Shown here one piece after another: positions 11,297 through 46,816 of a stretch of DNA of 64,000 nt (the first letter of the stretch is position 1; every line of letters starts with the position of its first letter). This DNA comes from Pseudomonadota bacterium (lineage in GTDB: Bacteria > Pseudomonadota > Alphaproteobacteria > Sphingomonadales > SMXR01), in contig JACZSK010000004.1 in assembly GCA_022574255.1 (NCBI GenBank), positions 704 through 64,703 on the forward strand, given 5' to 3'. A program made the position numbers and the translations under genes. The notes below the pieces were generated by a model. That model was not told the origin of the DNA. It ran no database searches and worked only from the letters and a program-made list of their open reading frames with translations.

Positions 11297-11337
11297 TTAT
11301 CAAAGGCGAGAGCGCCATTAAACGCCGGATTTTTCTG

Positions 11338-12198: not shown

Positions 12199-12223
12199 CG
12201 AGCAGTCGCTCACAACAGTTTGC

Positions 12224-12270: not shown

Positions 12271-12281
12271 TATGGTGAGAC

Positions 12282-13652: not shown

Positions 13653-13682
13653 CCGGATGAACGCGAGAAGCAGAGGCAGAAA

Positions 13683-14618: not shown

Positions 14619-14674
14619 CCGGCAGCAATAGACACAAGAATAGTCACAAGAATGATTCAAGCGGGAATTAGAGC

Positions 14675-16048: not shown

Positions 16049-16088
16049 CAACCAAACAATGCCGGCGCAAAGAGAGGCGAGGATTCTC

Positions 16089-16129
16089 TTGAAAACAGCC
16101 TAGCTTGTGCGCCATAATATGTGATCACA
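16089..16129 (+). promoter_or_regulatory. Promoter plus TGTGATCACA operator
   Basis: TTGAAA(16089)-N18-CATAAT(16113); operator at 16120-16129 just downstream of the -10 box. Confidence 0.7.
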
Positions 16130-16143
16130 AAATAACGTAAAAT

Positions 16144-17436: not shown

Positions 17437-17455
17437 GGGACGGGAGCGATAGAGG

Positions 17456-18325: not shown

Positions 18326-18356
18326 ACGGGTCTGGCCCACAAACTGGGACAAGCTT

Positions 18357-21752: not shown

Positions 21753-24170
21753 ATGAACATGATCAAGCGTAAATCCAATTCGAAATCGTTGCTGCTGGCG
21801 AGTTGCTCAGTCACCGCAATCGCGATTATGACGTCCCAACTGAATGTGGTTGTGGCTCAGGAACTCGAGGAAATTGTAGTTACGGCTACAAAGCGCGAGG
21901 TCTCAATTCAAGAAGTGCCGCTGGCGATAACCGCCTTCACCGGCGAATTTACGCGCCAGGTGAACATGAACGACATCAAGGATGTGATCGTCTGGACACC
22001 GGGTGTTACGGGCAATACGTCAGACAGCTTTATTGATGGTGTCTCGATCCGCGGAATTTTGACCAACGACTTTGGCAACGGCGGCGATCCGTCGATCGGA
22101 TTTTTCAAGAACAACCTCTACCAGGGCCGTACCGGCGTGGTTAACTCAAGCATGTATGACATGGAGCGGGTTGAAGTCCTGCGCGGCCCCCAGGGCTTCC
22201 TGTTTGGCCGTAACGCCATTGGCGGCGCCCTGAGTTTTCACACCAAGAAGCCAATACTTGGTCAGAACAGTGGATATGCGGAACTGGACGTTGGTGAGCG
22301 CAACCATTATGTCGGTGAAGGGGCCATCAACATTTCGTCCTCCGACACCTTTGGTGTCCGGATCGCCGGCTATTATTCGCGTGAAGATGGTTGGGTGGAC
22401 AATGTAAACACGCTTGGGGACGATAAACTCCTTGGTCACAAGAAAATTGCTGTTCGCGGGTCAGCCCTCTATGACAGCGGAACCTTCAGCGCTCTCATGA
22501 CCCTTGAATATGAGGATCGCGACGCCGACGGGTCGGTTTACCGGGGCATCGAGGATAGTATCGGTTTTCGTCGTCTGAATGATCTGTTCGGCGTTACGGT
22601 TGGTGGCGGTGGTCGCGATGTCGATCAAAATTTTGAATTTGGACGGCCCGAGGATGACAGCCAGGTTTTCAGGCTCGGTCTTCATATAGACTGGGACCTG
22701 GGAGGCATGACGCTTACCTCCACGACCGGCTACACCGATCACGACTATCTGTATAGCGAGGATTTTGACGGCACCACATTGGCCATCAACGGTTATCTGC
22801 AGGACCAGACGGGCAATTATTTCCAGCAGGAACTGCGCCTGACCTCGGACTCGGATTCCGATAGCGCTCTTTCGTGGTACGCGGGCGTTTCTTATTACCG
22901 GGAAAATATCGACACGCTCTTCCGGGAAAGATCCAGTGAAGCGACCCAGTGCGCCTATTATTTTGCGCCTTATTATGAGCCACCCTATTATAATTATACC
23001 CCGGCTGAAGCCGCTTATTATGGCCTCATCGGCTGCCAGTATTATTATTATAACAATGTTCCGTATGACGATCCGCTGAACGGCGACTTGGATGAAGATA
23101 ACCGGATTATAGGCAAATATACGGGCTGGGCTGCCTATGCCAATGTGGACTATAAAATCACCGAGAAGTTCAATATCGAGTTGGGAGTTCGCTACACCTA
23201 CGATAAAAAAGATTTCTCAATAGAATCCTTCACCCCTGCAAGTAATCTCGGGCCGTTTTGGGCGCTGGGCTTTACAACCGCAGAACCTCTCACTGACACG
23301 CGAAGCTGGGACGATTTTACCCCGCGGTTTATTGCGCGTTATCGCCCAAATGAGGATTTGACTTTATTCGCCAGCGTGACCCGCGGCTACAAATCCGGCG
23401 GCTTCGGCAGCTTTAACATCGAGCCTCTGCCAGGTGACCCTGAAATAGCTTTCGGTATACTTGATCCGAGAAATATTGATGCCACCAACGCTGTGGTCAG
23501 GCCCGGGGATTTTGAACCGGAGACCGTTTGGTCCTACGAGATCGGTGCCAAGGGCGCGGCTATGGGCGGAAGACTTCGCTGGGACGCCAACATCTATCAC
23601 TACAGGTATAGGGACCTGCAGGTCATCCTGACCGGCGATGGCGGCGGTATAACAGTCGATAATATTGGCCGCGCGAGGGGCACAGGTTTTGAAGGCTCCG
23701 TGCAGTGGCTTCTAAGCGAAAATCTCGACCTGCTCTTTTCAGGAGCCTACGCTTCAACCTCCATCAGGGGGGCGCAGGCTATTTGCCCCGGGGATGATGA
23801 GGATGCATGCGAAGGCAAGGGCCTTGGCTATGTTCCTGACTTTTCCTTCTCGGCAAGGCTCAATGGGCACTACCCGGTCGGGAACGGCAATGTCACCGGG
23901 GCGGTCGAACTGTTCGGACGGACCAAAACCCAGGCTATTCCGATCTCAACAGACCCGGCAGAGGTAAATCCCAGCTATGCCGAGATTGCCTTGCGGTTTG
24001 GGTATGAATCCGACAGCGGTTGGGCGGTTACCGCCTATGTCGAGAACCTCACAAATGAGCTCTATTACGACGGCATGTTTGCCGCCGGGGGGATTCTGCC
24101 GAGCGCTTGGTTCAATCCCAGCAGACCCAGGACATTCGGTGTTCGTTTTTATATGAACTTTGGGGAGTAG
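21753..24170 (+). CDS. TonB-dependent outer-membrane receptor
   Basis: Signal peptide, TonB box EEIVVTATKR, plug motif ERVEVLRGPQG, C-terminal PRTFGVRFYMNF. Confidence 0.95.
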   Translation: MNMIKRKSNSKSLLLASCSVTAIAIMTSQLNVVVAQELEEIVVTATKREVSIQEVPLAITAFTGEFTRQVNMNDIKDVIVWTPGVTGNTSDSFIDGVSIRGILTNDFGNGGDPSIGFFKNNLYQGRTGVVNSSMYDMERVEVLRGPQGFLFGRNAIGGALSFHTKKPILGQNSGYAELDVGERNHYVGEGAINISSSDTFGVRIAGYYSREDGWVDNVNTLGDDKLLGHKKIAVRGSALYDSGTFSALMTLEYEDRDADGSVYRGIEDSIGFRRLNDLFGVTVGGGGRDVDQNFEFGRPEDDSQVFRLGLHIDWDLGGMTLTSTTGYTDHDYLYSEDFDGTTLAINGYLQDQTGNYFQQELRLTSDSDSDSALSWYAGVSYYRENIDTLFRERSSEATQCAYYFAPYYEPPYYNYTPAEAAYYGLIGCQYYYYNNVPYDDPLNGDLDEDNRIIGKYTGWAAYANVDYKITEKFNIELGVRYTYDKKDFSIESFTPASNLGPFWALGFTTAEPLTDTRSWDDFTPRFIARYRPNEDLTLFASVTRGYKSGGFGSFNIEPLPGDPEIAFGILDPRNIDATNAVVRPGDFEPETVWSYEIGAKGAAMGGRLRWDANIYHYRYRDLQVILTGDGGGITVDNIGRARGTGFEGSVQWLLSENLDLLFSGAYASTSIRGAQAICPGDDEDACEGKGLGYVPDFSFSARLNGHYPVGNGNVTGAVELFGRTKTQAIPISTDPAEVNPSYAEIALRFGYESDSGWAVTAYVENLTNELYYDGMFAAGGILPSAWFNPSRPRTFGVRFYMNFGE

Positions 24171-24204: not shown

Positions 24205-24244
24205 AAGGGGCCCGGAAAAACTCTGTTGAGCCGGGCCCTTTTTT
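24205..24244 (+). terminator. Rho-independent terminator
   Basis: GGGCCCGG...CCGGGCCC stem followed by a T6 tract. Confidence 0.75.
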
Positions 24245-24317: not shown

Positions 24318-25931
24318 ATGAAATCCTATGACGCCATCGTAATCGGGGCCGGCCACAACGGGCTGGCCAATGCCGCCTTTCTGGCGAAAGCGGGTCTTGA
24401 CGTTCTGGTCGTCGAGAAGAACGACTATATTGGCGGTGCGACAGTCAGCCGCGAACTGCACGAAGGCTGGCAATATTCCAACTGCTCGTACGTCTGCAGC
24501 CTGTTCCGGCCGGAAATTTACCAGGCACTTGATTTGGGGCGTCACGGTCTTGAAGTGGTGCCGTTGCAGGGTGGCGTGACCTTCAAGCAGAACGGCGACT
24601 ATTATGGCAATTATCACCAGCCGGCCATCCGGCGGCGCGAAATTGCCCGCCATTCGAAGCGCGATGCCGATGCGGCAATACGTTTCGATGCCGACCTGAT
24701 GAAATGGTGCCGCCTGATCCGGGGCTTTCTGCTGCGCACGCCGCCTGACCCGGCATCATTCAAAATACGGGATGCAATGGAATTCGCTTCGCTGCTGAAA
24801 AGTTTTTACAGCCTGAGCGAAAGTCAGATCTACGAATTCATCCGTTTCTTCACCATGTCGATCGCGGAATACCTGGAAGAATATTTTGAGAGCGACGTCA
24901 TTCTCGCTCATTTTTCAGGGGGCAGCATCATTGGTACCGGCCTTGGCGTTTATTCGCCGGGTACGGCCTATGTATTGCTGCATCACGCCATGGGCGACAT
25001 TGACGGCAACGTCGGTTCATGGGGGTTTGCGCGTGGCGGCATGGGCTCCATTGCCAAGGCGATCGCCTCCGCATTGCAATCTTATGGCGGCAACATCCGC
25101 ACTGGCGCCGAGGTTCAGGAAATCAAGGTAAGAGGGCGCAAGGCGAGAGGCGTTGTGCTCAAATCGGGCGAAGAGATCAGTGCCCGGGTGGTTGTGTCCA
25201 ACCTGGATGCCAAACGCACCTTCCTTGGCATAATGAACCCCAAAGACCTGCCGGAATATGTGATCCGCCGGGCCGAAAATTTCAAGATTCGCGGATCTTC
25301 GGGCAAACTGAATATCGCGCTCGACGGCATGCCGGATTTTCCCGCGCTTGAAAAGGGCTCACCCCTCACGCTTGGGCATATGCATTTCACTGACACGCTC
25401 GAGCGGCTCGAGCGCGCCTACGACGATTGGAAGGACGACCGCTGGTCCGCCGACCCCTACGTGGACCTGGTTATTCCAAGCCAGTATGACCCGACACTGG
25501 CGCCTGCGGGCAAGCATATGGTGAGTGTCTTTGTACAATATTGCCCGGTCGAAGCCGAGGGCGGCTGGACAGAGGAGAAACGGGAAGCATTTGGCGCCAC
25601 AGTGATTGACCAGATCGCCAATTACAGCCCGAACTTCAAAGACCTCATCCTGCATGTGGAAATACGTACACCGAGCGAAATTGAAGCCGAGACAGGCCTC
25701 ACGGGCGGCAATATTTTTCAGGGGGAACTGACGCTCGATCAACTGATGTTCAATCGCCCGTTTCCCGGATATGCGCAATATCGCGGGCCGGTAAAAAACA
25801 TGTATATGTGTGGCTCGTCCACCCACCCCGGCGGCGGTGTCATGGGCGCCCCTGGCACGAATGCGGCGCGTGAAATACTGCGCGATCTGGGCAAGGTGAA
25901 TACCACGCCGGAGGATTTCGGCGATGACTAG
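24318..25931 (+). CDS. Phytoene-dehydrogenase-fold FAD oxidoreductase (PYROXD2-like), type A1
   Basis: IGAGHNGL, CSYVCS, ARGGMG, GNIFQGEL, CGSSTHPGGGV. Confidence 0.85.
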   Translation: MKSYDAIVIGAGHNGLANAAFLAKAGLDVLVVEKNDYIGGATVSRELHEGWQYSNCSYVCSLFRPEIYQALDLGRHGLEVVPLQGGVTFKQNGDYYGNYHQPAIRRREIARHSKRDADAAIRFDADLMKWCRLIRGFLLRTPPDPASFKIRDAMEFASLLKSFYSLSESQIYEFIRFFTMSIAEYLEEYFESDVILAHFSGGSIIGTGLGVYSPGTAYVLLHHAMGDIDGNVGSWGFARGGMGSIAKAIASALQSYGGNIRTGAEVQEIKVRGRKARGVVLKSGEEISARVVVSNLDAKRTFLGIMNPKDLPEYVIRRAENFKIRGSSGKLNIALDGMPDFPALEKGSPLTLGHMHFTDTLERLERAYDDWKDDRWSADPYVDLVIPSQYDPTLAPAGKHMVSVFVQYCPVEAEGGWTEEKREAFGATVIDQIANYSPNFKDLILHVEIRTPSEIEAETGLTGGNIFQGELTLDQLMFNRPFPGYAQYRGPVKNMYMCGSSTHPGGGVMGAPGTNAAREILRDLGKVNTTPEDFGDD

Positions 25932-27483
25932 GTCCGGTTCGGCAATCATCATCGGTGCGGGGCACAACGGACTGGTCTGTGCAACTTATCTCGCCAAAGC
26001 CGGCTATGCTGTGCAAATCCTGGAGGCCCGCGAAGTTGTGGGCGGCGGCGCTTCAACCCGGGAATTTGCTGAAGGATTCAGGGTCTCCGGCCTGGCGCAT
26101 GTCCTTCACCCCCTCAACCCAAAAATAGTCAAGGAACTTGGCCTGGGCGCCAAGGGGGCAAAGCCTGGCACGGCCATCGACACGATTTCGCTCGACCGTG
26201 ACGGTCGTCACCTTACGCTATCCACTGACAGCGTATCCGGCGCCGGACTTTCCGACGCCGATGCGCAAGCCTATTCCGCGTTCAAGCGGGAATTCCGGCG
26301 TTACGCCAAAGCGCTTGAGCCGATGACCATGAACAAGCCGCCGCGGCTGAAGGACATGGACAACACCGACAAACTCACTCTCGCCAAGCTTGGCTGGAAG
26401 CTGCGTTTTGGCCTTGGCAAGATATCGATGCGCGAGTTTCTTCGGGTCGGCGGCAGCAATATATACGATGTGCTGAATGAGTTTTTCGAAGATCAGCGGC
26501 TAAAGGGCGCCATCGCCGCAGACGCCGTGATCGGGCACCACATGGGTCCGCGAACTCCCACATCGGTACTGACCTATCTGCAACGATTGAGGGGCGAGCT
26601 GTATGGCGCTGAAATCCTGCCATCCGGCGGCATGGGAGAGGTTGCTAATATTCTCGCCGGCGTCGCCGAGAGAGCGGGGGTCAAAATTCGGACTGAGGCA
26701 CCGGTGCAACGGATTGTGGTGACTGATCACAAGGCGACTGGAGTTCAGTTGCAGTCCGGGGAAAGCATCGAGGCGGATATCGTTATCTCCAACGCCGATG
26801 CCAAGGCCACTTTTCTGCATCTGGTGGGCACCGAATATCTCGACGCCATGTTCGCACATCGCGTTCACAAGACCCGCACCGAAGGCACTGTGGCGAAGCT
26901 GCATTTCGCCCTAAAGGATCTGCCGCGGATAGAGGGCCTATCGGAGGCTCAGCTTGGTCAGCGGCTGCTGGTTGCGCCCGACATGCGCTATGTGGAACAC
27001 GCCTTCAATCACGCGAAATACGGCAGATACTCGGATGCGCCGGTCCTGGAGATCACCATCCCCAGCCTTGCGGACACCTCGTTGGCCCCGGCGGGGCAGC
27101 ATGTGATGTCGGTGTCGGCAAGCTTCGCGCCCTATTCTCTGAAAGAGGGTTGGGACAAATCGACCGGTGATTTCGCAGATAAAGTCGTTGCCCTCATTGC
27201 GGATTATGCCCCCGGATTTGCAGCGCAGATCATCGCCCGTGAAATTCTGACGCCCGTGGATATCGAGCGCGAATACAAAGTTACGGGCGGTCATTGGCAC
27301 CACGGAGAAATGAGTATCGGTCAATCTTTCATGATGCGCCCGGTACATGGCGCGGCACAATATGACACGCCCATCGAAGGGTTGTTCCTTTGTGGCGCCG
27401 CGGCCCACCCGGGCGGCGGGATCACCGGTATTCCCGGCCACAATGCCGCGAAGCGAATCCTGGCGATGAAGGCGGGACGGTAG
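25924..27483 (+). CDS. Phytoene-dehydrogenase-fold FAD oxidoreductase, type B1
   Basis: IGAGHNGL, GGHWHHGE, CGAAAHPGGG; overlaps A1 by 8 bp. Confidence 0.85.
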   Translation: MTRSGSAIIIGAGHNGLVCATYLAKAGYAVQILEAREVVGGGASTREFAEGFRVSGLAHVLHPLNPKIVKELGLGAKGAKPGTAIDTISLDRDGRHLTLSTDSVSGAGLSDADAQAYSAFKREFRRYAKALEPMTMNKPPRLKDMDNTDKLTLAKLGWKLRFGLGKISMREFLRVGGSNIYDVLNEFFEDQRLKGAIAADAVIGHHMGPRTPTSVLTYLQRLRGELYGAEILPSGGMGEVANILAGVAERAGVKIRTEAPVQRIVVTDHKATGVQLQSGESIEADIVISNADAKATFLHLVGTEYLDAMFAHRVHKTRTEGTVAKLHFALKDLPRIEGLSEAQLGQRLLVAPDMRYVEHAFNHAKYGRYSDAPVLEITIPSLADTSLAPAGQHVMSVSASFAPYSLKEGWDKSTGDFADKVVALIADYAPGFAAQIIAREILTPVDIEREYKVTGGHWHHGEMSIGQSFMMRPVHGAAQYDTPIEGLFLCGAAAHPGGGITGIPGHNAAKRILAMKAGR

Positions 27484-27485
27484 CT

Positions 27486-28682
27486 ATGGAAAAACACGAT
27501 TTCAGAGAGGTGCTACAGCGCTCGCCCTTTTTCCCGCGCGCAGACGCCCTCAGTCAGGTCAAGGTCTGGTCGCCCTGGAACGGCTATCAGACAGCCCGCA
27601 TTTACGACACGCTGGCATCAGAGTATTTCGCTATTCGCAGTTCCTGCAGCGTCTTTGATATGACACCAATGGGGAAATACCGGATCACAGGTCCGGACGC
27701 GATCAGGTTTCTGACCCGGCTTGTTACACGGGATATCTCCAAGCTAAAGCCCGGACGCGTGACCTATGTGGTCTGGTGCAATGATGAAGGCCAGGTGCTT
27801 GACGATGGCACCATCTTTCATCTGGGTGACGATGGGTATCGCCTCTGCGCCCAGCATAACCAGCTTGACTGGTTGCTGATCTCTGCCCTCGGGATGGATG
27901 TCACGATTGAAGAGGAAACCCATGAGGTAGCGGCCCTGTCCGTTCAGGGTCCGACTTCGTACTCTGTTCTTGAAGCGGCTGGTATTGACGGCCTCCAGGA
28001 GCTCAAGCCATTCGATATTGTGAACACATTTCTTGATGGCTTCGATGTCATGGTCTCCCGCACCGGCTTTACCGGGGATTTGGGATATGAGCTTTGGGTT
28101 GACCCAAATGATGCTCTTGCCCTCTGGGATGCAATTTTCGGCGTCAAGGCGCGTGGTCTTTATGATGTGCGTCCAATTGGTCTGGAAGCGCTTGAAATGG
28201 TCCGCATTGAGGCGGGGTTCATCGTGCCGGGTGACGATTTTAACACCGCGGAAACGGCAGTTCGGGCGGATCGCAGCCGCTCGCCCTTCGAGCTGGGGCT
28301 GGGTTGGGTGGTGAATTTCGACAAGCCCTATTTCACCGGTAAGCGCGCGCTTTTGGAGGAACATGCCCGTCCCATCAAACGGCGCCTCGTCAAGTTGTCG
28401 ACCGAAGGCAACAAGCCTCCGCATGACAGCTTCCTCTATGACGGGAAAAATGGACAGCGTATCGGCACTATCAAGACCGCAATCTGGTCGCCAATTCTCA
28501 AGTCAAATCTGGCGATGGCCGAGGTCGAATACATAAAAGGCAAGCGGCCAGCGGAAATATGGGCCCAAATCTATTATCAAAAAGAGCTGGAATGGAAAGT
28601 TGTATGGGAGCGGTGTGAAATCTCAGGTAAGCCGTTCTGGAACCCGCCCCGCCGCAACGCCACGCCACCGGAACCGTTCTAG
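27486..28682 (+). CDS. GcvT-family aminomethyltransferase (folate-binding)
   Basis: EYFAIR, FDMTPMGK, LDDGT, QGPTS, SRTGFTGDLGYE, RIEAG; ATG at 27486. Confidence 0.85.
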   Translation: MEKHDFREVLQRSPFFPRADALSQVKVWSPWNGYQTARIYDTLASEYFAIRSSCSVFDMTPMGKYRITGPDAIRFLTRLVTRDISKLKPGRVTYVVWCNDEGQVLDDGTIFHLGDDGYRLCAQHNQLDWLLISALGMDVTIEEETHEVAALSVQGPTSYSVLEAAGIDGLQELKPFDIVNTFLDGFDVMVSRTGFTGDLGYELWVDPNDALALWDAIFGVKARGLYDVRPIGLEALEMVRIEAGFIVPGDDFNTAETAVRADRSRSPFELGLGWVVNFDKPYFTGKRALLEEHARPIKRRLVKLSTEGNKPPHDSFLYDGKNGQRIGTIKTAIWSPILKSNLAMAEVEYIKGKRPAEIWAQIYYQKELEWKVVWERCEISGKPFWNPPRRNATPPEPF

Positions 28683-28708
28683 GATTACGGATAATTGGGG
28701 AGGAACCA

Positions 28709-29167
28709 ATGATGAAACCATATCGACTTCTTTCGTGCATCCTTCTTGCCGCGCTGGCGGGAAACAGCGGGGTTCTGGCGCTGGATGAAGACGCAGTGGT
28801 CAAACCGCAGATAATGACCAAGGCGGATATCGCCGGGGAAGTTTTCTCACGGCCCGACATGATCAAAACCGAGCGCCCGGGTGGCGCCACCTACGATGTT
28901 ACTTCCCTGCTCAGCAGTGATGAGAAGTTCGCCTCCGGAATGTATCGGGCCGGCGCCAGCCGGGTCGAGATCGACGAGCCATACGGCGTTGACGAATTCA
29001 TGTATTTCCTCGAAGGCGGCGTGACGCTGACATCATCTGATGGATCGGTCCAGGTCATCAATGCCGGGGACGCCGTAACCATCCCCAAGGAATGGACGGG
29101 TGTCTGGGAGACCGGGGGTTATACAAAAATCTGGGTGATCTATTCCGCCACCGGCGAAATCGAATAA
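28709..29167 (+). CDS. Exported cupin (DUF861-like) with Sec signal peptide
   Basis: Signal MMKPYRLLSCILLAALAG..VLA; DEFMYFLEG, AGDAVTIPKEWTGVW. Confidence 0.75.
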   Translation: MMKPYRLLSCILLAALAGNSGVLALDEDAVVKPQIMTKADIAGEVFSRPDMIKTERPGGATYDVTSLLSSDEKFASGMYRAGASRVEIDEPYGVDEFMYFLEGGVTLTSSDGSVQVINAGDAVTIPKEWTGVWETGGYTKIWVIYSATGEIE

Positions 29168-29168
29168 A

Positions 29169-31064
29169 TCAATCCAGGGCGACCTGTTCGTCAACTGCCC
29201 GGACGGCCGCATCGATGGCGCCGTCGGCATAGGCGTAGGCAGAGGCGTCAGAATTCGCGATTGAAATCCGGCCGATCTGCGCGCGGCCGGCGATATGCGG
29301 CCCGCGTTCGGGGCTCCAGTCCGCCGGATCCCACAATTCGTTATATTCATAGGCATAGCCGTGCGGCCAGCGGTTAACAGTAATGGCCGCAATATCGCAC
29401 TCGGCATCAAAGCCGCCGCCGCTCAGCGCGCCATCCATCTGCCGGAAGACGTCTTCCTCGAAATCGGCAAAGCTCCACTCATATATTTTCTGGCGCCCCA
29501 GAACATACTGCTCGCGGGCGCTAAGGCCCTGGCCCGGGACGCTGGGAATAACGGTTCCATGGACGATAATCGGGTTGTTCGGGCTTTTCGAGAAACTGTA
29601 GTCCCCCATGCTGACGGGGAAATCGGGCTCCATGGAATACATCAGTTCCGCCCGCGGTATGAAGATGCGGTGAAGCCCCAATTCGGCAAACGCCCGCCAG
29701 TTGCGCAGGGCGATATTAATATAAACGAGCGGGACCTTGGTCGCGTATGAAATGGCCTCCCGCTGCGCGTCGGGCACTTCGGGGCAGATATGCGGAATGA
29801 TATTGTTGTAGCAGGCCAGGATCACATGTTTCCCGCGCACCCGGTGCGCGACGCCGCTTTGGACGTATGTGATATCGACAGTTTTGCCATCTTTTGTGTG
29901 ACGAACGTCCACGCCAGTACTGTTAAGCCGAATACGGACAGCCGAGTTTTCCTTGTCCAGTGCGCCATAATCGACCCGTGAAGTTACCAGGCCCTGCATG
30001 GTTTTTCCCGGCACCGCGCTCGGTATCAGGCTCCGCACCAGCGCGCGGGCAACGCCGGCGTTGCCATCGGGGAAGTGGAATATATAGGGCTCGTCCTGAA
30101 TGCCGTGGCCAAGCTGCTGGTCGGTCAGCCCCAGCGCCGAGGTGCCGGGCATTCCGAGCCTGACACCCTCCAGCGCGGAAAGCGCGTCCCACGCCGAGCC
30201 CCAGTAGCTTTTAAACTTGTCTCTCAGCAGGTCTGCCCCTTCCCTGGGGATTCCGGCGTGGGTCTGAAGAAAATCCACATAGCTTATCTTGCGCAGGGCT
30301 TCGGCTTTTTCATCTGGCTTCAGTCCGGGGAGATAGTCAGTGTTACTGGTCACCAGCCTGACCAACGCTGCGCGCGTCTCTTCCCCCACCGGAAATTTAC
30401 TTATGATCTCCCGGGCGGGCGTGCGGCTTGCCTCTAGATAAGTCGTGCTGAACGGGTCCGGCAGGATGCGGTCAACGCCGTAAGCCTGCTGGTTGAAATA
30501 GATGGCGTTCTCAAGATTCCAACGCTTGTTAAACTGCTGATCGAAGTGGGTGTAGAAATCCTGCACCTCTATGGAAATATCCTTCAGCAGCTTCTTTGCC
30601 GCAGGCGAGTAACTCGCCGGCCCCTCGAGGGACTGGCTGCCGCCGTAACCAATCAGTTTTTGCCCGTCGACATCGAATTCATTTCGCTTGGCGTGACCGC
30701 CGAAGTCGTCATGATTATCGAGAACGAGGATTTTTGTATCGGGTCCGATACGTTCCCGATACAAAAACGCTGCAGACAGGCCTGAAATGCCCGCGCCAAC
30801 GACAACCAGGTCATAGGTATCATCGGTTTGTTCGTTCGGCTGCTTCCATCTCTTGCCCTCCTGGGCAATGGCGTGGGCGACTTCGAAGGAACCCGCATGA
30901 CTGCCCCTCATGCCCGTAAGGCCGGGCGGGTAATAGTCTTGGGAGCCTGTTTCTGCGCTCATGGCGCCGGCTACTTCCAGCGGCGACAGAATGGTCCCTG
31001 CGGCAACGCCAAGGGCGACGCCGCCCATAAAATCACGACGGGATATTTTGCGCTGAAGAGCCAT
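29169..31064 (-). CDS. spdH: Tat-exported spermidine dehydrogenase-like flavoprotein
   Basis: SRRDFMGG Tat motif, YYPPGLTGMRGSHAGSFEVAH, GAGISGL, DNHDDFGGHAKRNEF, HFPDGNA, NRWPHGYAYE. Confidence 0.8.
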   Translation of the reverse strand: MALQRKISRRDFMGGVALGVAAGTILSPLEVAGAMSAETGSQDYYPPGLTGMRGSHAGSFEVAHAIAQEGKRWKQPNEQTDDTYDLVVVGAGISGLSAAFLYRERIGPDTKILVLDNHDDFGGHAKRNEFDVDGQKLIGYGGSQSLEGPASYSPAAKKLLKDISIEVQDFYTHFDQQFNKRWNLENAIYFNQQAYGVDRILPDPFSTTYLEASRTPAREIISKFPVGEETRAALVRLVTSNTDYLPGLKPDEKAEALRKISYVDFLQTHAGIPREGADLLRDKFKSYWGSAWDALSALEGVRLGMPGTSALGLTDQQLGHGIQDEPYIFHFPDGNAGVARALVRSLIPSAVPGKTMQGLVTSRVDYGALDKENSAVRIRLNSTGVDVRHTKDGKTVDITYVQSGVAHRVRGKHVILACYNNIIPHICPEVPDAQREAISYATKVPLVYINIALRNWRAFAELGLHRIFIPRAELMYSMEPDFPVSMGDYSFSKSPNNPIIVHGTVIPSVPGQGLSAREQYVLGRQKIYEWSFADFEEDVFRQMDGALSGGGFDAECDIAAITVNRWPHGYAYEYNELWDPADWSPERGPHIAGRAQIGRISIANSDASAYAYADGAIDAAVRAVDEQVALD

Positions 31065-31077
31065 AATCGAACTTTCC

Positions 31078-31113
31078 AAGATCACAAAAATAAGCCAAAA
31101 TGTGATCACAAAT
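31078..31113. promoter_or_regulatory. TGTGATCACA operator plus upstream half-site
   Basis: TGTGATCACA at 31101-31110; GATCACAAAAA at 31080-31090; divergent spdH/aminotransferase region. Confidence 0.75.
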
Positions 31114-31197
31114 TCTATCGTGGGAAGAGAATAATGAGTAGCCCTATCTGCATGCTTCGCGCGTTCGGCAAAACAGAATCAGGCCACAGTAGCTAAT

Positions 31198-32514
31198 ATG
31201 AACCACACCAACGACACTCTATCGGCCTATTGGATGCCGTTTACCCCAAACCGGGATTTCAAGGCCAATCCGCGCATGATCGAAAGCGCCGACGGTTTGT
31301 ATTACAAGACAACCGACGGCCGCGAGGTGTTTGACGGATCATCGGGGCTCTGGTGCTGTGCGCTCGGTCACAACCACCCCAAGGTGGTGGAGGCGATCCG
31401 CGAACAGGCGGGCAGGCTCGATTACGTCTCGCCATTCCAGTTTGGGCATCCTGCGGCGTTTGAGCTGGCCAATATGCTGGCTGACGATATGCCCGAGGAT
31501 CTGGATCATGTTTTTTTCACCAATTCCGGATCGGAATCGGTAGACACCGCCCTCAAGATTGCCACCGCCTACCACCGCCTTCGCGGCGAGGGCACGCGCA
31601 CACGCTTCATTGGCCGCGTAAACGGCTATCACGGTGTCGGGTTCGGCGGCATTTCGGTTGGCGGCATGGTCAACAACCGCAAATTTTTTGGCTCCCTGCT
31701 GACCGGCGTCGATCATATGCCGTTTCCCTATGATTCCGAAACCATGGCGTTTTCCCGGGGGGAGCCCGAACGGCGTGACGATTACGCCGAGGCGCTCGAA
31801 CAGATCATTGCCCTTCATGATTCCAGCACCATCGCGGCGGTGATTGTTGAACCTGTTTTTGGCTCGGCAGGCGTCTATGTTCCGCCCAAGGGGTATTTGA
31901 AACGCTTGCGCGAAATTACCGAAAAACACGGAATTCTGTTGATATTTGACGAGGTCATCACCGCCTTCGGGCGCCTTGGATACGCCACGGCCGCCGAGCG
32001 TTTCGGCGTGACGCCGGACATAATCACCACCGCCAAAGCCATTAACAGCGGCACTGTTCCCATGGGGGCTGTGGCTGTGCGCAAGGGCATCTACGACACC
32101 TTCATGGACCAGACCGAATCAGGCATTGAGCTGTTCCATGGCTATACCTATTCGGCCCACCCCCTGGCGGTGGCGGCAGCCATAGCTGTGCAAAAGATAT
32201 ATAAAGACGAAGGCATCTATGAAAATGTTCAGGAAGTGGAAGGCTACTTCGAAGATATGGCGCATGGGCTGGGTGAAGAAGAGGTCATCACGGATGTGCG
32301 CAACATCGGCCTGATGTGCGGCCTGACCTTCGCGCAAAAGGACGGTGTGCCGATGTCCCGTTCGGGGGCCATATTCCAGCGGGCGTATGAGAACGGCCTG
32401 AAAATTCGCGTTACCGCCGACAATGTAGCCATCGCGCCGCCGCTGACGGTGACCAAAAGCGACATAGACAAAATCGGCGACCTGATGCGACAGACTATAA
32501 GGGACGTTGGCTAA
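31198..32514 (+). CDS. Omega-amino-acid (beta-alanine)--pyruvate aminotransferase, BauA-like
   Basis: WMPFTPNRDFK, DGSSGLWC, YHGVGFGGISVGG, FDEVITAFGR, ELFHGYTYSAHP. Confidence 0.85.
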   Translation: MNHTNDTLSAYWMPFTPNRDFKANPRMIESADGLYYKTTDGREVFDGSSGLWCCALGHNHPKVVEAIREQAGRLDYVSPFQFGHPAAFELANMLADDMPEDLDHVFFTNSGSESVDTALKIATAYHRLRGEGTRTRFIGRVNGYHGVGFGGISVGGMVNNRKFFGSLLTGVDHMPFPYDSETMAFSRGEPERRDDYAEALEQIIALHDSSTIAAVIVEPVFGSAGVYVPPKGYLKRLREITEKHGILLIFDEVITAFGRLGYATAAERFGVTPDIITTAKAINSGTVPMGAVAVRKGIYDTFMDQTESGIELFHGYTYSAHPLAVAAAIAVQKIYKDEGIYENVQEVEGYFEDMAHGLGEEEVITDVRNIGLMCGLTFAQKDGVPMSRSGAIFQRAYENGLKIRVTADNVAIAPPLTVTKSDIDKIGDLMRQTIRDVG

Positions 32515-34056
32515 GTGAATCACTACGACACAATCATCATCGGCGCCGGGCACAACGGGTTGATATGCGCCGCCTATCTGGCGCGTAGCGGTCAACGGGT
32601 ATTGGTGCTGGAGGCGTCAGACACCCTCGGGGGGATGGCCGCACCGCGCGAATTCCACCCCGGCTTCAAGACATCCGTCGCCCATTCTGTAAGCCAGTTT
32701 TCAGCGAAAATTACCCGCGACCTCGACCTTGAAGCGCACGGGTTCAAGTTGGGAAAGACGCTGACCACCGTGGGGCTCAACGACGCGGGAGAGCATGTGG
32801 TCCTGCAGGATGGCGCCGTTAGCGGCGTTGGCCCGGACGACGCCAGCGCCTATGCCGACTACCGACAGATGATGCAGCGCTTTGCCGGCGTGCTGAACCC
32901 GGTCTGGCTTCAAACCATGCCCCGTATCGGCAATAACAACCTCTCGGAAATCCTCACCTTCGCCAGCATCGGGCTCAGGCTGCGCCTGCTTGGCAAGGAC
33001 CACATGCGTGAATTCCTGCGCGTTGCCGCCTTGCCGGCGCGGGACCTTATGGACGAGAATTTCGACAGTGAGCTGCTGAAAGCGGTGCTTGGCTGGGACG
33101 GGCTGATCGGTTCCAGGATGGCGCCGCGTTCGCCGAACGGTGCTGTGTTGGTAATGCTCTATCGCATGAGCGGTGCGCTTTCCGGCGACCATGCCATACC
33201 AAACGGTGGCGTCGGCGGCCTGATCACGTCGCTGCATTCTTCAGCAGTTGAGGCGGGCGTCGAGGTCAGAACCGGTTCCAGGGTTGGCCGTATCTTGATT
33301 CAGGCGGATGAAAGCGGGCTCGCCGCCACCGGGGTTGAACTGGCCGATGGCGAGCAGATAATGGCGGACCGTGTGGTCTCGGCGGCGGACCCCAAAACGA
33401 CCTTTTTCGACCTGGTCGGAGTGCAGAATCTCGAGATCGAGTTCACCAACAGAATCCGGCGGCTGCGGTGCGACGGGTATGTGGCCAAGTTGCATCTTGC
33501 CCTGGACGGATTGCCCGCGTTCGACGGATTGGAGCGGCCCGATGGCCGAATGATTATCGCGCCGGATATGGACAGCATCGAGTTTGCCTTCGATGACGCG
33601 AAGTATGGTGAGAGCGCAGGGCAGCCGGTCATGGAAATCGTCATTCCCAGCCTGCAGGATGCCTCGCTGGCGCCGAATGGCCAGCATGTGCTCTCAGCCC
33701 ATGTCATGTATGTACCTTACCGGCTGAAGGGCGGCTGGACCGATGAGGCGCGCGAAGCCCTGTGTGAAAGGGCTATAGACACCATCGCGCGTTATGCGCC
33801 GGGCATCCGGAAACAGATACTTCACCGGGAATTGCTGACACCGCTGGATCTGGAGCGAACCTGTAATGTCACCGGCGGCCATTGGCATCACACCGAGTTT
33901 GCCATGGACCAGATGCTGATGATGCGGCCGACCTACGATGCCGCGCAATATTCCACGCCGATACCGGGCCTGTATCTGTGCGGCGCCGGCAGCCACCCGG
34001 GTGGTGGCCTGATGGGCGGCCCGGGGCACAACGCTGCCCACGAGATACTCAAATGA
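32515..34056 (+). CDS. Phytoene-dehydrogenase-fold FAD oxidoreductase, type B2
   Basis: Paralogue of 25924-27483 (MREFLRV, VAKLH, GGHWHH, HPGGG); GTG start abuts the previous stop. Confidence 0.85.
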   Translation: MNHYDTIIIGAGHNGLICAAYLARSGQRVLVLEASDTLGGMAAPREFHPGFKTSVAHSVSQFSAKITRDLDLEAHGFKLGKTLTTVGLNDAGEHVVLQDGAVSGVGPDDASAYADYRQMMQRFAGVLNPVWLQTMPRIGNNNLSEILTFASIGLRLRLLGKDHMREFLRVAALPARDLMDENFDSELLKAVLGWDGLIGSRMAPRSPNGAVLVMLYRMSGALSGDHAIPNGGVGGLITSLHSSAVEAGVEVRTGSRVGRILIQADESGLAATGVELADGEQIMADRVVSAADPKTTFFDLVGVQNLEIEFTNRIRRLRCDGYVAKLHLALDGLPAFDGLERPDGRMIIAPDMDSIEFAFDDAKYGESAGQPVMEIVIPSLQDASLAPNGQHVLSAHVMYVPYRLKGGWTDEAREALCERAIDTIARYAPGIRKQILHRELLTPLDLERTCNVTGGHWHHTEFAMDQMLMMRPTYDAAQYSTPIPGLYLCGAGSHPGGGLMGGPGHNAAHEILK

Positions 34057-35672
34057 AGCAATATGACGCAATCATTATCGGCGCCGGCCACAACGGCCTG
34101 ACCAATGCCGCCTATCTGGCCAAAGCCGGTCTGGATGTCATTGTCGTCGAGAAAAACGACTATATCGGTGGTGCGGCGGTATCGCGCGAATTGCACGAAG
34201 GCTGGATATACTCCAACTGTTCCTACGTCTGCAGCATGATGCGCCAGGCGCTGCACCGCGACCTCAACCTGACCCGGCACGGCCTGGTGCTGGTGCCATA
34301 TCTGGGCACCGTTGGATTCGGGGATGGCGACCGCCCGCTGATTTCCTACCATAATGCGGATGCATCCTATTTGGAATTGAGGCGGCACTCGCCGCATGAC
34401 GCAGATTCGATGTTTCGTTTCCAGGCCGACCTGGCCCGCTACGCACAACTGATCCGCAAGACCCTGTTGCGCACGCCGCCCGATCCGACATCGTTCCGGC
34501 CGCGGGATATCCAGGAAATGCTGTTCCTCGCCAAACAATTCTGGATGTTGGGCGAGAGAGAAATTTACGAATATATGCGCTTCTTCACCATGAGCGCTGC
34601 GGAGTTTCTCGATGATTATTTCGAAAACGACCTGATCAAGGCGGCGATGGCCAGCCCGGCTGTTATAGGCACCGCTTTGGGTGTCTATTCGCCGGGCTCG
34701 GCCTACATCCTGCTGCATCATGTGATGGGCGATGTGGATGGCAATATCGGGGCCTGGGGTCTGGCCCGCGGCGGCATGGGGGCCATCTCGACAGCCCTCG
34801 CCGGGGCGCTGCAGGAGCACGGCGGCGAGATTCGCACCAATGCCGGCGTCGAGCGGATTCTGGTCAAAGGCGGCAAGGCGATCGGGGTGGCTCTGGAGGA
34901 CGGCGAAGAGATCAGCGCCCGCATCGTGGTCTCCAACCTGGACGCCAAGCGCACCTTCACGCAAATCATCGATAAGGACGACCTGCCGCCCGGCATTTAC
35001 GACAAGGCCAAAAACTTCAAAATTCGCGGCTCCTCCGGCAAGCTCAACATCGCCCTGTCTGGATTACCGAAATTCACCGGTGTGCCGGACAACCGCTACA
35101 TCAATCGCGGCGGACAGTTGTTCGCCGGTTCCCTGGAAACCATGGAACGCGCCTACGACTGCTGGAAGCGCGGCCGCTGGTCGGATGACCCTTTTATCGA
35201 GTCTGTAATTCCATCCGCCTGGGACCCAACCGTGGCGCCGCCCGGAAAACACTGGATGGCTGCATTCGTGCAATATTGTCCCTCCAAGCTCGCCGACGGC
35301 CCCTGGACGCCGGAGAAACGCGACCAGTTTGGCCAGACTGTTATCGACAAGATCGAGAGATACAGCCCGGGCTTCAAGGACCTGATTGTGCATATGGAGG
35401 TCCGCACGCCCCATGAAATCGAGGCCGAGATCGGATTGACAGAGGGCAATATCTTCCAGGGCGAGTTGACCCTCGACCAATTGCTGTTCAACCGCCCGTT
35501 CCCCGGCTATGCCCAATATCGGATGCCAATTAAAAACATGTATATGTGCGGCTCAAGCACTCACCCTGGCGGCGGAGTCTCCAGCGCCTGTGGCGCCAAT
35601 GCCGCCCGAGAGATTTTGCTGGATCTGAAACTTCCCAATACAGTACCCGAAGACGATTGTTACGATGAATAG
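34053..35672 (+). CDS. Phytoene-dehydrogenase-fold FAD oxidoreductase, type A2
   Basis: Close paralogue of 24318-25931; ATGA overlap with B2. Confidence 0.85.
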   Translation: MKQYDAIIIGAGHNGLTNAAYLAKAGLDVIVVEKNDYIGGAAVSRELHEGWIYSNCSYVCSMMRQALHRDLNLTRHGLVLVPYLGTVGFGDGDRPLISYHNADASYLELRRHSPHDADSMFRFQADLARYAQLIRKTLLRTPPDPTSFRPRDIQEMLFLAKQFWMLGEREIYEYMRFFTMSAAEFLDDYFENDLIKAAMASPAVIGTALGVYSPGSAYILLHHVMGDVDGNIGAWGLARGGMGAISTALAGALQEHGGEIRTNAGVERILVKGGKAIGVALEDGEEISARIVVSNLDAKRTFTQIIDKDDLPPGIYDKAKNFKIRGSSGKLNIALSGLPKFTGVPDNRYINRGGQLFAGSLETMERAYDCWKRGRWSDDPFIESVIPSAWDPTVAPPGKHWMAAFVQYCPSKLADGPWTPEKRDQFGQTVIDKIERYSPGFKDLIVHMEVRTPHEIEAEIGLTEGNIFQGELTLDQLLFNRPFPGYAQYRMPIKNMYMCGSSTHPGGGVSSACGANAAREILLDLKLPNTVPEDDCYDE

Positions 35673-35681
35673 GCCCTCACC

Positions 35682-36890
35682 ATGACCAATACGGAAGACC
35701 GCTGGGCCGGCGAACGGCTTATGGAGTCCCACTTTCACCCCCGACAGGCGGCGCTCAACCTGCGCGACGCCTGGTCGAGCTGGAATGGCTACAAGTTCGC
35801 CAATTATTACTACGACGCCGAATACGAGTATTTCTGCATCCGTAACAGTTGCGGCACATACGACATCTGCCCGATGCAGAAATATGAAATCACCGGCCCT
35901 GATGCCGAAGCCATGCTGAACCGCATGGTGACCCGCAATATTGCCAATTTGAAGGAAAACCGGGTCACCTACGTCTGCTGGTGCACCGATGAAGGGCGCA
36001 TGATCGACGACGGCACGATTTTCAAGCTGGGCCCGGAAAAGTTCATGCTGACCTGCGGCAGTCCCTGCCTGGCCTGGTTGAGGAAAAGCGCCTTCGGATT
36101 TGGCGACGTCACGATTACTGATATGTCCGACGAGACCGCGGCGCTGTCTTTCCAGGGACCGGCCTCATGCGAAGTATTGAAGAAGCTGGGGTTGGAGGGT
36201 ATTGAGACCGCCAAGCCCTTTGACATCATGCACTTTCCCTTTCAGGGTGGCAGCGGCAAGGAATTGATGGTGTCGCGCACCGGATTTACCGGCGATCTCG
36301 GTTACGAGCTGTGGATTGCGCCAGAGCTGGCGCTCGACCTCTGGGACGCGCTCTATGATGCCGGCGACGATTATGGCATCCATCCCTACGGCGAGGTCGC
36401 CACCAATATGGCGCGGCTGGAAGCCGGCTTCATCATGCCGGACATGGAATTTAGTGAAGCGCTCAAGACCATCCACTTTCAGCACGATCAGACCCCCTTC
36501 GAGTTGAACCTGGGCTGGCTGGTCGATTTCAAGAAACCGCATTTCAATGGCCGACGCGCCCTGCTGCAGGATCGGGACAAGGGTCCCGCGTATAAATTGA
36601 CCAAGCTGGATATTGAGGGCAATAAAGTAGCGGAAGGGGCCTATCTGTACAGCAACAGGCGCTGTACGCAGGAGATCGGTTATATCACTTCCGCCATGTG
36701 GTCGCCGGTGGTAAAAGCCAATATCGCGCTGGCGATGATCAAGCCCGAATACCTGGAAGGCGACATCTGGGCGGAAATCTACTACCAAAAAGAGCTGCGC
36801 CAATACAGTAAAGTGGCTAAATGCACGGTCAAAAATAAACCTTTCTGGAGACCGGCGCGGGCGCGAGCAACACCGCCGCCGGGTTTGTAA
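35682..36890 (+). CDS. GcvT-family aminomethyltransferase, second copy
   Basis: EYFCIR, IDDGT, QGPAS, SRTGFTGDLGYE, RLEAG, IYYQKEL shared with 27486-28682. Confidence 0.85.
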   Translation: MTNTEDRWAGERLMESHFHPRQAALNLRDAWSSWNGYKFANYYYDAEYEYFCIRNSCGTYDICPMQKYEITGPDAEAMLNRMVTRNIANLKENRVTYVCWCTDEGRMIDDGTIFKLGPEKFMLTCGSPCLAWLRKSAFGFGDVTITDMSDETAALSFQGPASCEVLKKLGLEGIETAKPFDIMHFPFQGGSGKELMVSRTGFTGDLGYELWIAPELALDLWDALYDAGDDYGIHPYGEVATNMARLEAGFIMPDMEFSEALKTIHFQHDQTPFELNLGWLVDFKKPHFNGRRALLQDRDKGPAYKLTKLDIEGNKVAEGAYLYSNRRCTQEIGYITSAMWSPVVKANIALAMIKPEYLEGDIWAEIYYQKELRQYSKVAKCTVKNKPFWRPARARATPPPGL

Positions 36891-39926: not shown

Positions 39927-40220
39927 GATACCTGTATATCGCAAGGGCCCAACCCCAGCCACAGGTATGAGCAATAATATGGAGGATTATGGGCACCGGC
40001 CCTATGAGGCGCGCTGATGGCGCGGTACAGCAAAACTCATCAGAGAAGCTATCCGGAAACCCACAGAATCCCGGCATGGGTTTCTGACGACCGCGAAGGT
40101 ACAGCGGATAGCTGGTTACTGTACCCTTGGCCAAGCAGCGGAAAATGCTCGGTTTCGCTGGCTAAAACCCGCGTCACGCACGAAATTGTATCTCACGGAT
40201 TGGCTGTGGAAAAGGGCCGC

Positions 40221-45255: not shown

Positions 45256-45257
45256 CC

Positions 45258-46805: not shown

Positions 46806-46816
46806 GGGGCGATTGT

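Follow-up and report, generated by a model that had tools for sequence, protein, structure and literature searches.

What reaction would call for two different flavoproteins of the kind that databases name 'phytoene dehydrogenase-like' and, directly behind them, a free-standing folate-binding protein of the GcvT family? The question is raised by a 64,000-nucleotide stretch of an alphaproteobacterial genome (Sphingomonadales, lineage SMXR01; GenBank assembly GCA_022574255.1, contig JACZSK010000004.1, positions 704 to 64,703), hereafter the window, in which such a set of three genes occurs twice, as A1-B1-T1 (24318-28682) and, with the order of the flavoprotein genes inverted, as B2-A2-T2 (32515-36890). 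Here A and B designate the two types of flavin adenine dinucleotide (FAD) protein and T the GcvT-family protein. Where a flavoprotein and a GcvT-fold folate protein are closely linked, the one established meaning is the oxidation of an N-methyl group and capture of its carbon by tetrahydrofolate (THF). With moderate confidence we hold that each module encodes a THF-coupled oxidative N-demethylase, in which a CrtI/PYROXD2-like A/B heterodimer would act together with a stand-alone GcvT-like acceptor of the one-carbon (C1) unit. From gene context and family resemblance we infer how the reaction proceeds, what its substrate and electron acceptor may be, and that T makes contact with A/B.

The region of both modules, in a genome assembled to 3.07 Mb at 94.6% completeness, comprises nine genes in two operon-like groups, as established from the listing of open reading frames (ORFs) and a reading of the gene junctions (Table 1). 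A preliminary description of the window had proposed these two units, each with a translationally coupled pair of flavoproteins of distinct types and a GcvT protein encoded separately from them, and all of this was borne out: the units are genuine paralogous operons with overlapping or abutting junctions, A and B overlap by 8 nt in module 1 and by an ATGA in module 2, and T is in each case an extra GcvT paralogue with a gene of its own, encoding 398-402 amino acids. Pairwise BLASTP identities of 63% between A1 and A2, 46% between B1 and B2 and 48% between T1 and T2, against 33-35% between A and B, indicate two distinct flavoprotein types that were duplicated together as a whole set. The longest ORF covering T1 begins at a TTG (27390) that is not the likely start, and the span originally given for this gene is right. 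A G+C-rich hairpin followed by a T-run, read by eye between the TonB receptor gene and A1, is a probable terminator that makes module 1 an operon in its own right; it counts as an observation only, having been skipped by the consensus scanner because its loop is too long. The scan for promoters and terminators itself returned counts not above those of shuffled sequence (10 found against 10.0 expected, and 15 against 17.6), so that it is gene spacing, together with the hairpin seen by eye, that defines the operon boundaries.

That the three genes belong together is best seen in other genomes, where the neighbourhood survey advocated in the preliminary description was carried out by tblastn with the window proteins. 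Among the best 79 of at least 591 relatives of A in species-representative genomes, A is directly followed by B in all 71 loci offering at least 1.5 kb of room, and the order A-B-T recurs in all 66 that offer at least 2.75 kb. The 8-nt overlap of A and B is retained in 58 of the 71, B and T overlap or are separated by at most 10 nt in 57 of the 66, and the second module, as B-A-T, is likewise present in eight loci. A similar picture at greater distance came from 400 other genomes sampled evenly across the class to which the window belongs, with A-type genes (E <= 1e-150) in 18 genomes and the A-B-T order in 15/15 more distant loci from 14 of these, at identities of 51-70% for A and 21-55% for B. 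T-type genes (E <= 1e-80) were found in 16 of the 400, all but one of them A-positive, and the remaining genome is an 81%-complete assembly in 490 contigs. The same order in 66/66 and 15/15 loci of other genomes places the A-B-T arrangement far beyond chance, and the predicted co-occurrence of A, B and GcvT held in these loci, with purU beside some of them. Carriers include loci titled Porticoccaceae, Halieaceae, Woeseiaceae and OM182, as well as some Alphaproteobacteria; among the cultured ones are Lentisalinibacter strains (L039 and L051) and 'Ca. Seongchinamella marina' IMCC8485 (L036).

The affiliation of T is clear at the family level. Both copies pass the GCV_T model PF01571 (T1 201 and T2 190 bits, cut-off 25.6), and T2 also passes PF08669 with 37.1 bits (cut-off 25.9), which T1 just misses with 24.5. 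Neither reaches the cut-off of the GcvT equivalog TIGR00528 (165.6 and 146.3 bits against 235.85) or that of PRK00389 (219 and 212 against 300). A canonical gcvT-gcvH-gcvP operon is present elsewhere in the genome, at 25318-28016 of contig C39; this separate operon, together with the TIGR00528 scores, argues that T is not the T protein of glycine cleavage. The earlier statement that the window contains no gcvH or gcvP is likewise correct, both occurring only on C39 (26456-28016), beside that third gcvT. Four matches to the GCV_T domain exist in the genome, namely gcvT, T1, T2 and a short YgfZ-like one, so that, the YgfZ-like match aside, T1 and T2 are the genome's sole folate proteins of this fold outside glycine cleavage, and the same family search of the genome returned no protein of the DMGDH, SoxA, Tdm or DmdA type. 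The best NCBIfam model for T is Tdm (NF053776; T1 243.5 and T2 257.1 bits against 1100), of which only profile positions 377-761 of 763, the C-terminal folate domain, are matched. Asp106 and Asp107 of T are invariant in 25 T sequences and align with Asp95 and Asp96 of Thermotoga maritima GcvT, which include the catalytic aspartate.

These profile scores bear on a reading in which T would be a redox-neutral methyltransferase of the DmdA/LigM type, moving the methyl of a sulfonium, quaternary ammonium or ether compound to THF as 5-methyl-THF, while A and B perform an independent redox reaction on that same carbon skeleton, for instance an amine oxidation or a C-C desaturation as is usual among CrtI relatives. 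We regard it as very unlikely. It can draw on precedents within the GcvT family, on weak matches of T to the models of DmdA (NF009133; 126.8 bits for T1 and 132.9 for T2), LigM (57-61) and DesA (62-66), on the desaturases that stand closest to A and B, and on CoA ligase, acyl-CoA dehydrogenase and enoyl-CoA hydratase genes near the trio that recall the route of dimethylsulfoniopropionate demethylation. However, T falls far below the DmdA cut-off of 410, scores higher on models of the GcvT, Tdm and SoxA types, whose members make methylene-THF, and preserves the GcvT catalytic aspartate without exception. Moreover, a gene for a formaldehyde-activating enzyme (GFA), found in 6/79 loci, lies directly 3' of T in four of them (L002, L010, L014 and L015, locus numbers referring to the set surveyed), a position that points to formaldehyde and hence to oxidative demethylation.

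As a separate observation, a further gene of the GcvT family (32-36% identity to T1) is located immediately 5' of A1 in L002, L013, L014 and L015 and more distantly upstream in L017; it is not found at the equivalent position in the window.

Turning to the flavoproteins, all four pass the Amino_oxidase model PF01593 (A1 53.7, B1 76.3, B2 71.0 and A2 63.9 bits, cut-off 19.8), and their match to the DAO model PF01266 is confined to the first ~40-50 residues. A as well as B retains a dinucleotide-binding motif at the N-terminus and an FAD motif at the C-terminus. A is much more conserved, with a mean column identity of 75% versus 53% for B in alignments of 41 rows, and the invariant motifs, which adjoin the modelled interface described below, differ between the two, B possessing a His-rich one at residues 456-462. 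The A-type family is large (2017 representatives at E <= 1e-30 in a library clustered at 50% identity), and its members are named 'phytoene dehydrogenase-like protein' or 'NAD(P)/FAD-dependent oxidoreductase' in databases. The closest PDB sequences are those of CrtI (4dgk, E = 1e-17) and a gamma-carotenoid desaturase (3e-15); the match to amine oxidases is limited to the N-terminal, FAD-binding part (E about 1e-5). A Foldseek search with the AlphaFold (AF2) model of A1 (pLDDT 84.9) ranks 4rep first (TM 0.76/0.83), with 4dgk also among the nearest folds, and places NicA2, monoamine oxidases and putrescine oxidase below the desaturases at TM scores of about 0.56-0.61. Since this fold is shared across the whole superfamily, the fold search of A1 cannot separate C-C from C-N chemistry.

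Taken at face value, the database names would make A and B carotenoid or isoprenoid desaturases or ketolases, with an incidental GcvT neighbour, and in keeping with this the best NCBIfam match of both types is the CrtO ketolase (NF045689) and the best PDB matches are CrtI and the gamma-carotenoid desaturase. We give this reading hardly any credence. The scores are far under the curated cut-offs, 244-276 bits against 1000 for CrtO (A1 276) and 104-138 against 238 for crtI_fam (TIGR02734; A1 121). As the preliminary description had stated, carotenoid genes are missing from the window: none of crtB, crtE and crtY was found among the window ORFs scanned, and the two matches to the phytoene/squalene synthase family (SQS_PSY) in the genome are both located outside it, on contig C77. 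An incidental association is also difficult to reconcile with the 66/66 and 15/15 loci in A-B-T order, and with amine and C1 neighbours throughout.

CrtI-like paralogues standing alone also occur. A third one in the genome (G000:C186:12945-14363; L080 6940-8625, minus strand) is 34-35% identical to A1 and B1 and was judged unrelated to the modules, its neighbours being a MatE transporter and an IS240-type transposase, with no partner flavoprotein and no GcvT gene; a short match is also present on contig C24. In L012, L016, L019, L034 and L042 lone paralogues at 36-39% identity are present.

Do A and B act as one enzyme? The preliminary description had proposed a heterodimer and suggested structure prediction as a check, and the resulting complex model of A1 and B1 supports binding, with ipSAE values of 0.79, 0.81 and 0.79 over three runs, none of the three controls exceeding 0.00, a partner pLDDT of at least 83 and a contact agreement of at least 96%. 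In calibration the mark used for binding was passed by 58/80 solved complexes and 2/110 mismatched pairs, rates that hold only roughly here because own alignments were supplied. The modelled interface is pseudo-twofold, equivalent segments being contributed by A (145-188, 209-215, 314-323, 362-373 and 472-484) and by B (141-186, 210-213, 309-318, 355-366 and 464-475), and in B the positions at the interface exceed the mean conservation of the protein (0.72 vs 0.62; permutation p = 0.011). As far as a model can, this supports the view that A and B form a heterodimer.

Alternatively, A and B could be separate demethylases working in sequence, taking a dimethyl amine to the monomethyl and then to the primary amine in the manner of DMGDH and SARDH (sarcosine dehydrogenase), with one free T serving both and no heterodimer. 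Consistent with this arrangement, the FAD motifs are intact in A as well as in B, paralogues at 33-35% identity that each possess an invariant motif of their own in the active-site region; a quaternary amine could lose its first methyl to the GbcA-like Rieske oxygenase encoded in 29/79 loci, so that exactly two would be left for A and B; and the lone paralogues on C186 and in L012, L016, L019, L034 and L042 suggest that the fold can work without a partner. The complex model (0.79 vs 0.00) and the 8-nt overlap in 58/71 loci argue for the heterodimer instead, as does the fact that A is never found without B in 71 + 15 loci, and we consider two sequential enzymes unlikely. A heterodimer with two different active sites would fit both descriptions.

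The setting of the modules in the window provides the first indications of a substrate. They lie in a polyamine and amine catabolic island, in agreement with the preliminary description, which encodes a full-length homologue of spermidine dehydrogenase (SpdH) together with agmatinase, an AptA-type aminotransferase and Puu-like proteins (Table 1). The SpdH homologue is matched by phmmer to PDB entries 7d9f and 7d9i, the solved Pseudomonas aeruginosa enzyme, with E = 2-3e-161 (residues 22-641 against 3-618 of 620); Pfam detects only its N-terminal NAD_binding_8 part, and the identity comes from the PDB sequence search. The Puu-like block contains a sodium:solute symporter (SSF), a class-I GATase resembling PuuD, a GS-like ligase, an agmatinase above its cut-off (TIGR01230, 210 bits vs 174), a class-III aminotransferase, a DAO-family oxidase, a protein of 289 amino acids and a PuuC-like aldehyde dehydrogenase; the last scores 656 bits against 850 on the PuuC model, and the GS-like and DAO proteins are also under their equivalog cut-offs. 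The presence of purU in the same island, claimed earlier, was verified above the cut-off of its family. A copy of the module-1 cupin, 59% identical, sits 5' of A in L075.

Table 1. Features of the window discussed in the text (positions in the window; aa, amino acids).
Feature	Position	Strand	Remarks
APH-family kinase gene, then class-III aminotransferase-like gene	4919-7243	+	beside purU
purU, formyltetrahydrofolate deformylase	7325-8215	-	TIGR00655 335 bits, cut-off 286
Puu-like amine catabolism block	8943-19856	+	Pfam and NCBIfam
Conserved 289-aa protein	17456-18325	+	within the Puu-like block
TPR-sulfotransferase	19976-21589	+	Pfam; upstream of module 1
TonB-dependent receptor	21753-24170	+	Pfam; just upstream of module 1
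G+C-rich hairpin and T-run	24207-24244	+	probable terminator
A1	24318-25931	+	537 aa; CrtI/PYROXD2-like FAD protein of the conserved type
B1	25924-27483	+	519 aa; second CrtI-like FAD protein, faster-evolving
T1	27486-28682	+	398 aa; stand-alone GcvT-family folate-binding protein; ATG 2 nt past the B1 stop
Cupin_3 (EutQ-like) gene	28709-29167	+	PF05899 38.9 bits; closes the module-1 operon
SpdH homologue	29169-31109	-	646 aa; between modules 1 and 2
AptA-type omega-aminotransferase (class III)	31198-32514	+	NF052567 684 bits, cut-off 500; opens the module-2 operon
B2	32515-34056	+	513 aa; GTG start immediately after the aminotransferase stop codon
A2	34053-35672	+	539 aa; start chosen by junction reading
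T2	35682-36890	+	402 aa; stand-alone GcvT-family protein
Atypical PEPC-like ORF	37179-39974	-	931 aa
Nar-type molybdoenzyme cluster	41485-53438	+	1256-aa catalytic subunit and iron-sulfur subunit
Nar-type gamma subunit	47440-48999	+	fused to two c-type cytochrome domains

Some further genes of the window merit mention in their own right. The conserved 289-aa protein has no Pfam, NCBIfam or PDB relative; it is encoded beside the modules in 9/79 loci, standing between T1 and B2 in several Porticoccaceae-like ones, and its automatic Atlas name, 'Shikimate kinase family protein', has no family support. The two genes beside purU match opposite ends of PRK06148, a long NCBIfam model of a fused protein (233 and 537 bits), and presumably resemble a split kinase and phospho-lyase of the kind known for amino-alcohols. 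The PEPC-like ORF shows a weak, partial match to PEP carboxylase (60.9 bits, residues 310-550) and belongs to no NCBIfam family. The Nar-type genes are followed by an unusually long MFS protein of 901 amino acids and a second MFS protein.

Elsewhere the trio is accompanied by a broader but related set of genes, tabulated for the 79 loci after clustering neighbours at a minimum of 30% identity over at least 70% of their length and scanning one representative per cluster; many of the loci being short, the counts are lower bounds. Most frequent are a GbcA-like Rieske oxygenase alpha subunit (29 loci; NF058607 272 bits, below the cut-off of 670), a BetI-type TetR regulator (27), an acyl-CoA dehydrogenase (ACAD; 25), an ADP-forming CoA ligase (21), the binding protein of a PotF-like ABC transporter (21) and an aminotransferase resembling GSA-aminomutase and GntE (20). 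A GS-like ligase, a DAO oxidase and a PuuC-like aldehyde dehydrogenase (15 each), an Asp/Arg-hydroxylase-family protein (12), a TPR-sulfotransferase (10), SpdH (8), a PuuD-like GATase and an enoyl-CoA hydratase (5 each), a GNAT protein (4), a TMADH/DgcA-like OYE-FAD protein, a BHMT-like and a DDAH-like protein (3 each) and a PuuR-like regulator (2) complete the list. In the genome of the window itself, no GbcA-like Rieske protein, PotF-like binding protein or ADP-forming ligase was detectable with the neighbour queries. Genes of C1 metabolism are represented, in addition to GFA, by purU, which is found beside the trio in L001 (directly 3' of T), L036, L045 and L091, and by a formate-THF ligase gene placed between both modules in L004 and L005. 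A link to purU is familiar from the mabO (4-methylaminobutanoate oxidase) cluster of pAO1.

Three groups of neighbours converge on oxidative N-demethylation into the folate pool: those that handle formaldehyde, formyl-THF and formate, those that attack other N-methyl groups (GbcA-like, TMADH-like and BHMT-like), and downstream enzymes that need a free primary amine, such as the AptA-type transaminase, gamma-glutamyl ligase, oxidase, hydrolase and aldehyde dehydrogenase. The SpdH, agmatinase, PotF, GNAT and PuuR-like genes suggest skeletons of the di- or polyamine type. In this respect the preliminary description, which had named methylated polyamines or amines as substrates, can be followed in part: the polyamine context stands, and since Rieske, CoA ligase, ACAD and PotF-type genes are neighbours in many genomes, the substrates may include quaternary or omega-N-methylated amines and not methylated polyamines alone.

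Smaller substrates must also be weighed, the trio being conceivably the missing demethylase for dimethylglycine and sarcosine, or for dimethylamine (DMA) and trimethylamine (TMA), in bacteria that lack DMGDH, Sox and Dmm enzymes, and not one for polyamine-derived compounds. The four GCV_T matches in the genome of the window indeed include no protein of the DMGDH, SoxA, Tdm or DmdA type, and GbcA-like Rieske, BetI-type TetR and BHMT-like genes adjoin the trio elsewhere. The dmmDABC genes are reported to be absent from abundant marine Gammaproteobacteria (PMC5520151), and variants of human PYROXD2 are described as associated with urinary TMA and plasma DMA (PMC3169529). Yet glycine, monomethylamine and DMA need none of the omega-aminotransferase, aldehyde dehydrogenase, SpdH, CoA ligase and PotF-type transporter genes that recur as neighbours, and the AptA-type transaminase even shares an operon with module 2. 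Nor does the genome encode an alpha subunit of the N-methylglutamate pathway, which would carry a GCV_T domain, to make use of monomethylamine; and the query with the GbcA-like Rieske protein detected no homologue in it. Dedication to such small amines is thus rather improbable in our estimation.

The TPR-sulfotransferase genes next to the trio, seen in L002, L003, L007, L013, L017, L022, L049, L058, L074 and L075 (Porticoccaceae-like and some other loci), are often accompanied by a TonB-dependent receptor gene or an ORF of ~850 amino acids and by a gene of the Asp/Arg beta-hydroxylase family.

On the folate-coupled N-demethylase proposal, the module would operate as follows. A and B would constitute an obligate, pseudo-symmetric heterodimer of diverged CrtI/PYROXD2-like FAD proteins, acting on secondary or tertiary N-methylamines, whose N-CH3 bond it would dehydrogenate to give the methylene-iminium. 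THF-loaded T would take over the C1 unit as 5,10-methylene-THF with release of the demethylated amine, any C1 unit escaping T leaving as formaldehyde, and the captured unit would be oxidised along the folate pathway with PurU as its end point. The freed primary amine could then enter the AptA-type transaminase, the gamma-glutamylation (Puu-like) route, aldehyde dehydrogenase or spermidine dehydrogenase. The likeliest substrates would be N-methylated di- and polyamines or their gamma-glutamyl or omega-amino-acid derivatives, and the two modules may serve different substrates or successive methyl groups.

A more far-reaching scenario, to which as a whole we assign a slim chance, connects this chemistry with diatoms. 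A/B/T would be the N-demethylating step that allows bloom-associated marine bacteria to consume the N-methylated long-chain polyamines of diatom silica, together with methyl-lysine-rich silaffin fragments, taken up through the adjacent TonB-dependent receptor. The N-methyl groups would pass to the folate pool, SpdH would then cut the exposed secondary amines, and the aminopropyl fragments would become substrates of the Puu-like enzymes and the AptA-type transaminase for beta-alanine and omega-amines. Carried further, the scenario would imply that the enzymes of the PYROXD2 branch of the CrtI/amine-oxidase superfamily, the human orphan among them, are N-methylamine dehydrogenases.

Several observations weigh against assigning a folate-coupled N-demethylase to the modules. 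In sequence and in fold the closest relatives of A and B are carotenoid desaturases, enzymes of C-C and not of C-N chemistry. The complex was modelled on shortened chains (A1 residues 4-508 and B1 residues 6-500, with own alignments), the conservation of the A interface residues relative to the rest of A is not significant (0.83 vs 0.80, p = 0.15), and a way of dimerising that is general to this fold may account for the passing score. The neighbourhood is lineage-dependent, with CoA ligase, ACAD and Rieske genes in Woeseiaceae, Halieaceae and others and a TonB receptor plus sulfotransferase in Porticoccaceae-like loci, and as a result of this variation the context does not yield a single substrate. 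Within the window purU is 16 kb distant from the modules. No RNA sequencing run containing the region is listed; at least half of the words of the region are present in two DNA runs (X1 and X2) from a single study of a marine sediment metagenome, which may represent the source sample. Finally, a fusion search started from T1, covering 26 proteins that are longer relatives of it, retrieved two apparent fusions of B with T (P0121 and P0123; Amino_oxidase plus GCV_T) that were rejected as frameshifted gene calls over the overlapping B/T junction: both match B up to about residue 411-445, continue in unrelated low-complexity sequence and then match T. P0122, combining T with CoA-ligase domains, is probably an artefact of the same kind, and metagenome records such as P0121 and P0123, annotated phytoene dehydrogenase/aminomethyltransferase, could mislead domain-fusion analyses.

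How new would such an enzyme be? Folate-coupled flavin N-demethylation is textbook chemistry. To our knowledge the flavoprotein is of the DAO fold in every characterised enzyme performing it, and in most cases it is joined to the folate domain in one chain, otherwise being part of a Sox-type heterotetramer. The preliminary description had likewise known of no characterised enzyme with the present architecture, and a search of full-text literature turned up no paper on it, subscription journals and supplements, where transcriptome or fitness data might mention the genes, lying outside its scope. The chemistry would accordingly be of a known kind and the architecture, a CrtI-like pair plus a free GcvT-like protein, new. 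If the proposal is true, it would introduce a new enzyme design for folate-coupled N-demethylation and give biochemists a first point of entry to a very large family whose annotation goes no further than 'phytoene dehydrogenase-like' or 'NAD(P)/FAD-dependent oxidoreductase'. The known dimethylamine monooxygenase genes are reported to be missing from abundant marine Gammaproteobacteria (PMC5520151); the trio, which occurs in abundant marine lineages, could therefore supply a missing step in the cycling of methylated amines, polyamines and C1 units in the sea.

Among known systems, a close chemical parallel is offered by DMGDH and sarcosine dehydrogenase, in which flavin-dependent N-methyl oxidation is followed by capture of the C1 unit by THF, LSD1 being described as mechanistically analogous (PMC4769866). 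As in these enzymes, dimethylglycine oxidase (DMGO) and 4-methylaminobutanoate oxidase (MABO), the modules are proposed to combine flavin N-methyl oxidation with delivery of C1 to 5,10-methylene-THF (PMC4769866), and T aligns with the folate domains of DMGDH/DMGO-type enzymes (PDB 1pj5, 4p9s and 5l46; E 1e-22 to 1e-24). Unlike DMGDH, SARDH, DMGO and MABO, in which a DAO-fold flavoprotein (PF01266) is fused to the folate domain, the modules pair two PF01593 proteins with a separate T. SoxBDAG and N-methylglutamate dehydrogenase share with the proposed enzyme a multi-subunit N-demethylase with a GcvT-like domain, and T matches the C-terminal part of SoxA (141-147 bits; PDB 2gag, E = 3e-28). In contrast to SoxBDAG, however, the modules are without beta, gamma and delta subunits, do not approach the SoxA cut-off of 1164 bits and use another flavoprotein fold.

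A stand-alone GcvT-domain protein is found in the DmmDABC system, where DmmD, encoded in the dimethylamine monooxygenase operon, has been proposed to conjugate formaldehyde with tetrahydrofolate (PMC5520151), a precedent for T; DmmABC differs in having no CrtI-like flavoprotein pair. Tdm, the best-scoring NCBIfam model for T, also gives a strong PDB match through its C-terminal folate domain (9q5a, E = 2e-42), but T lacks the N-terminal catalytic domain (398-402 vs 763-793 amino acids) and stays below the cut-off of 1100. With LSD1/KDM1, monoamine oxidase, putrescine oxidase and NicA2, A and B share PF01593 and the overall fold (TM about 0.56-0.61), and LSD1 is itself an FAD-dependent N-demethylase that releases formaldehyde (PMC4769866); in contrast to what is proposed for A and B, these enzymes form no heteromer of the A/B kind, and a GcvT gene as partner is lacking. 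CrtI, CrtN and CrtO are the nearest relatives of A and B in sequence and fold, from which the two are set apart by missing the curated cut-offs, by a context without carotenoid genes and by strict linkage to a folate protein and amine catabolism.

The parallel with PYROXD2 is of a different nature, since the link rests on names only, the nearest bacterial clusters of A1 in the ESM Atlas being automatically named 'Pyridine nucleotide-disulfide oxidoreductase domain-containing protein'. We know of no A/B pairing or GcvT partner for PYROXD2. The human protein was still described as functionally uncharacterised in papers of 2022 and 2026 (PMC8777681, PMC13352909), its variants being associated with TMA and DMA (PMC3169529) and with N2-acetyl-N6,N6-dimethyllysine (p = 3e-85; PMC13352909). 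The resemblance between these N-methylamines and the proposed substrates of the bacterial modules is a suggestive analogy, and should the relation hold, bacterial gene context would supply a testable function for an orphan mitochondrial flavoprotein whose genetic associations, as given in these sources, all concern N-methylamines.

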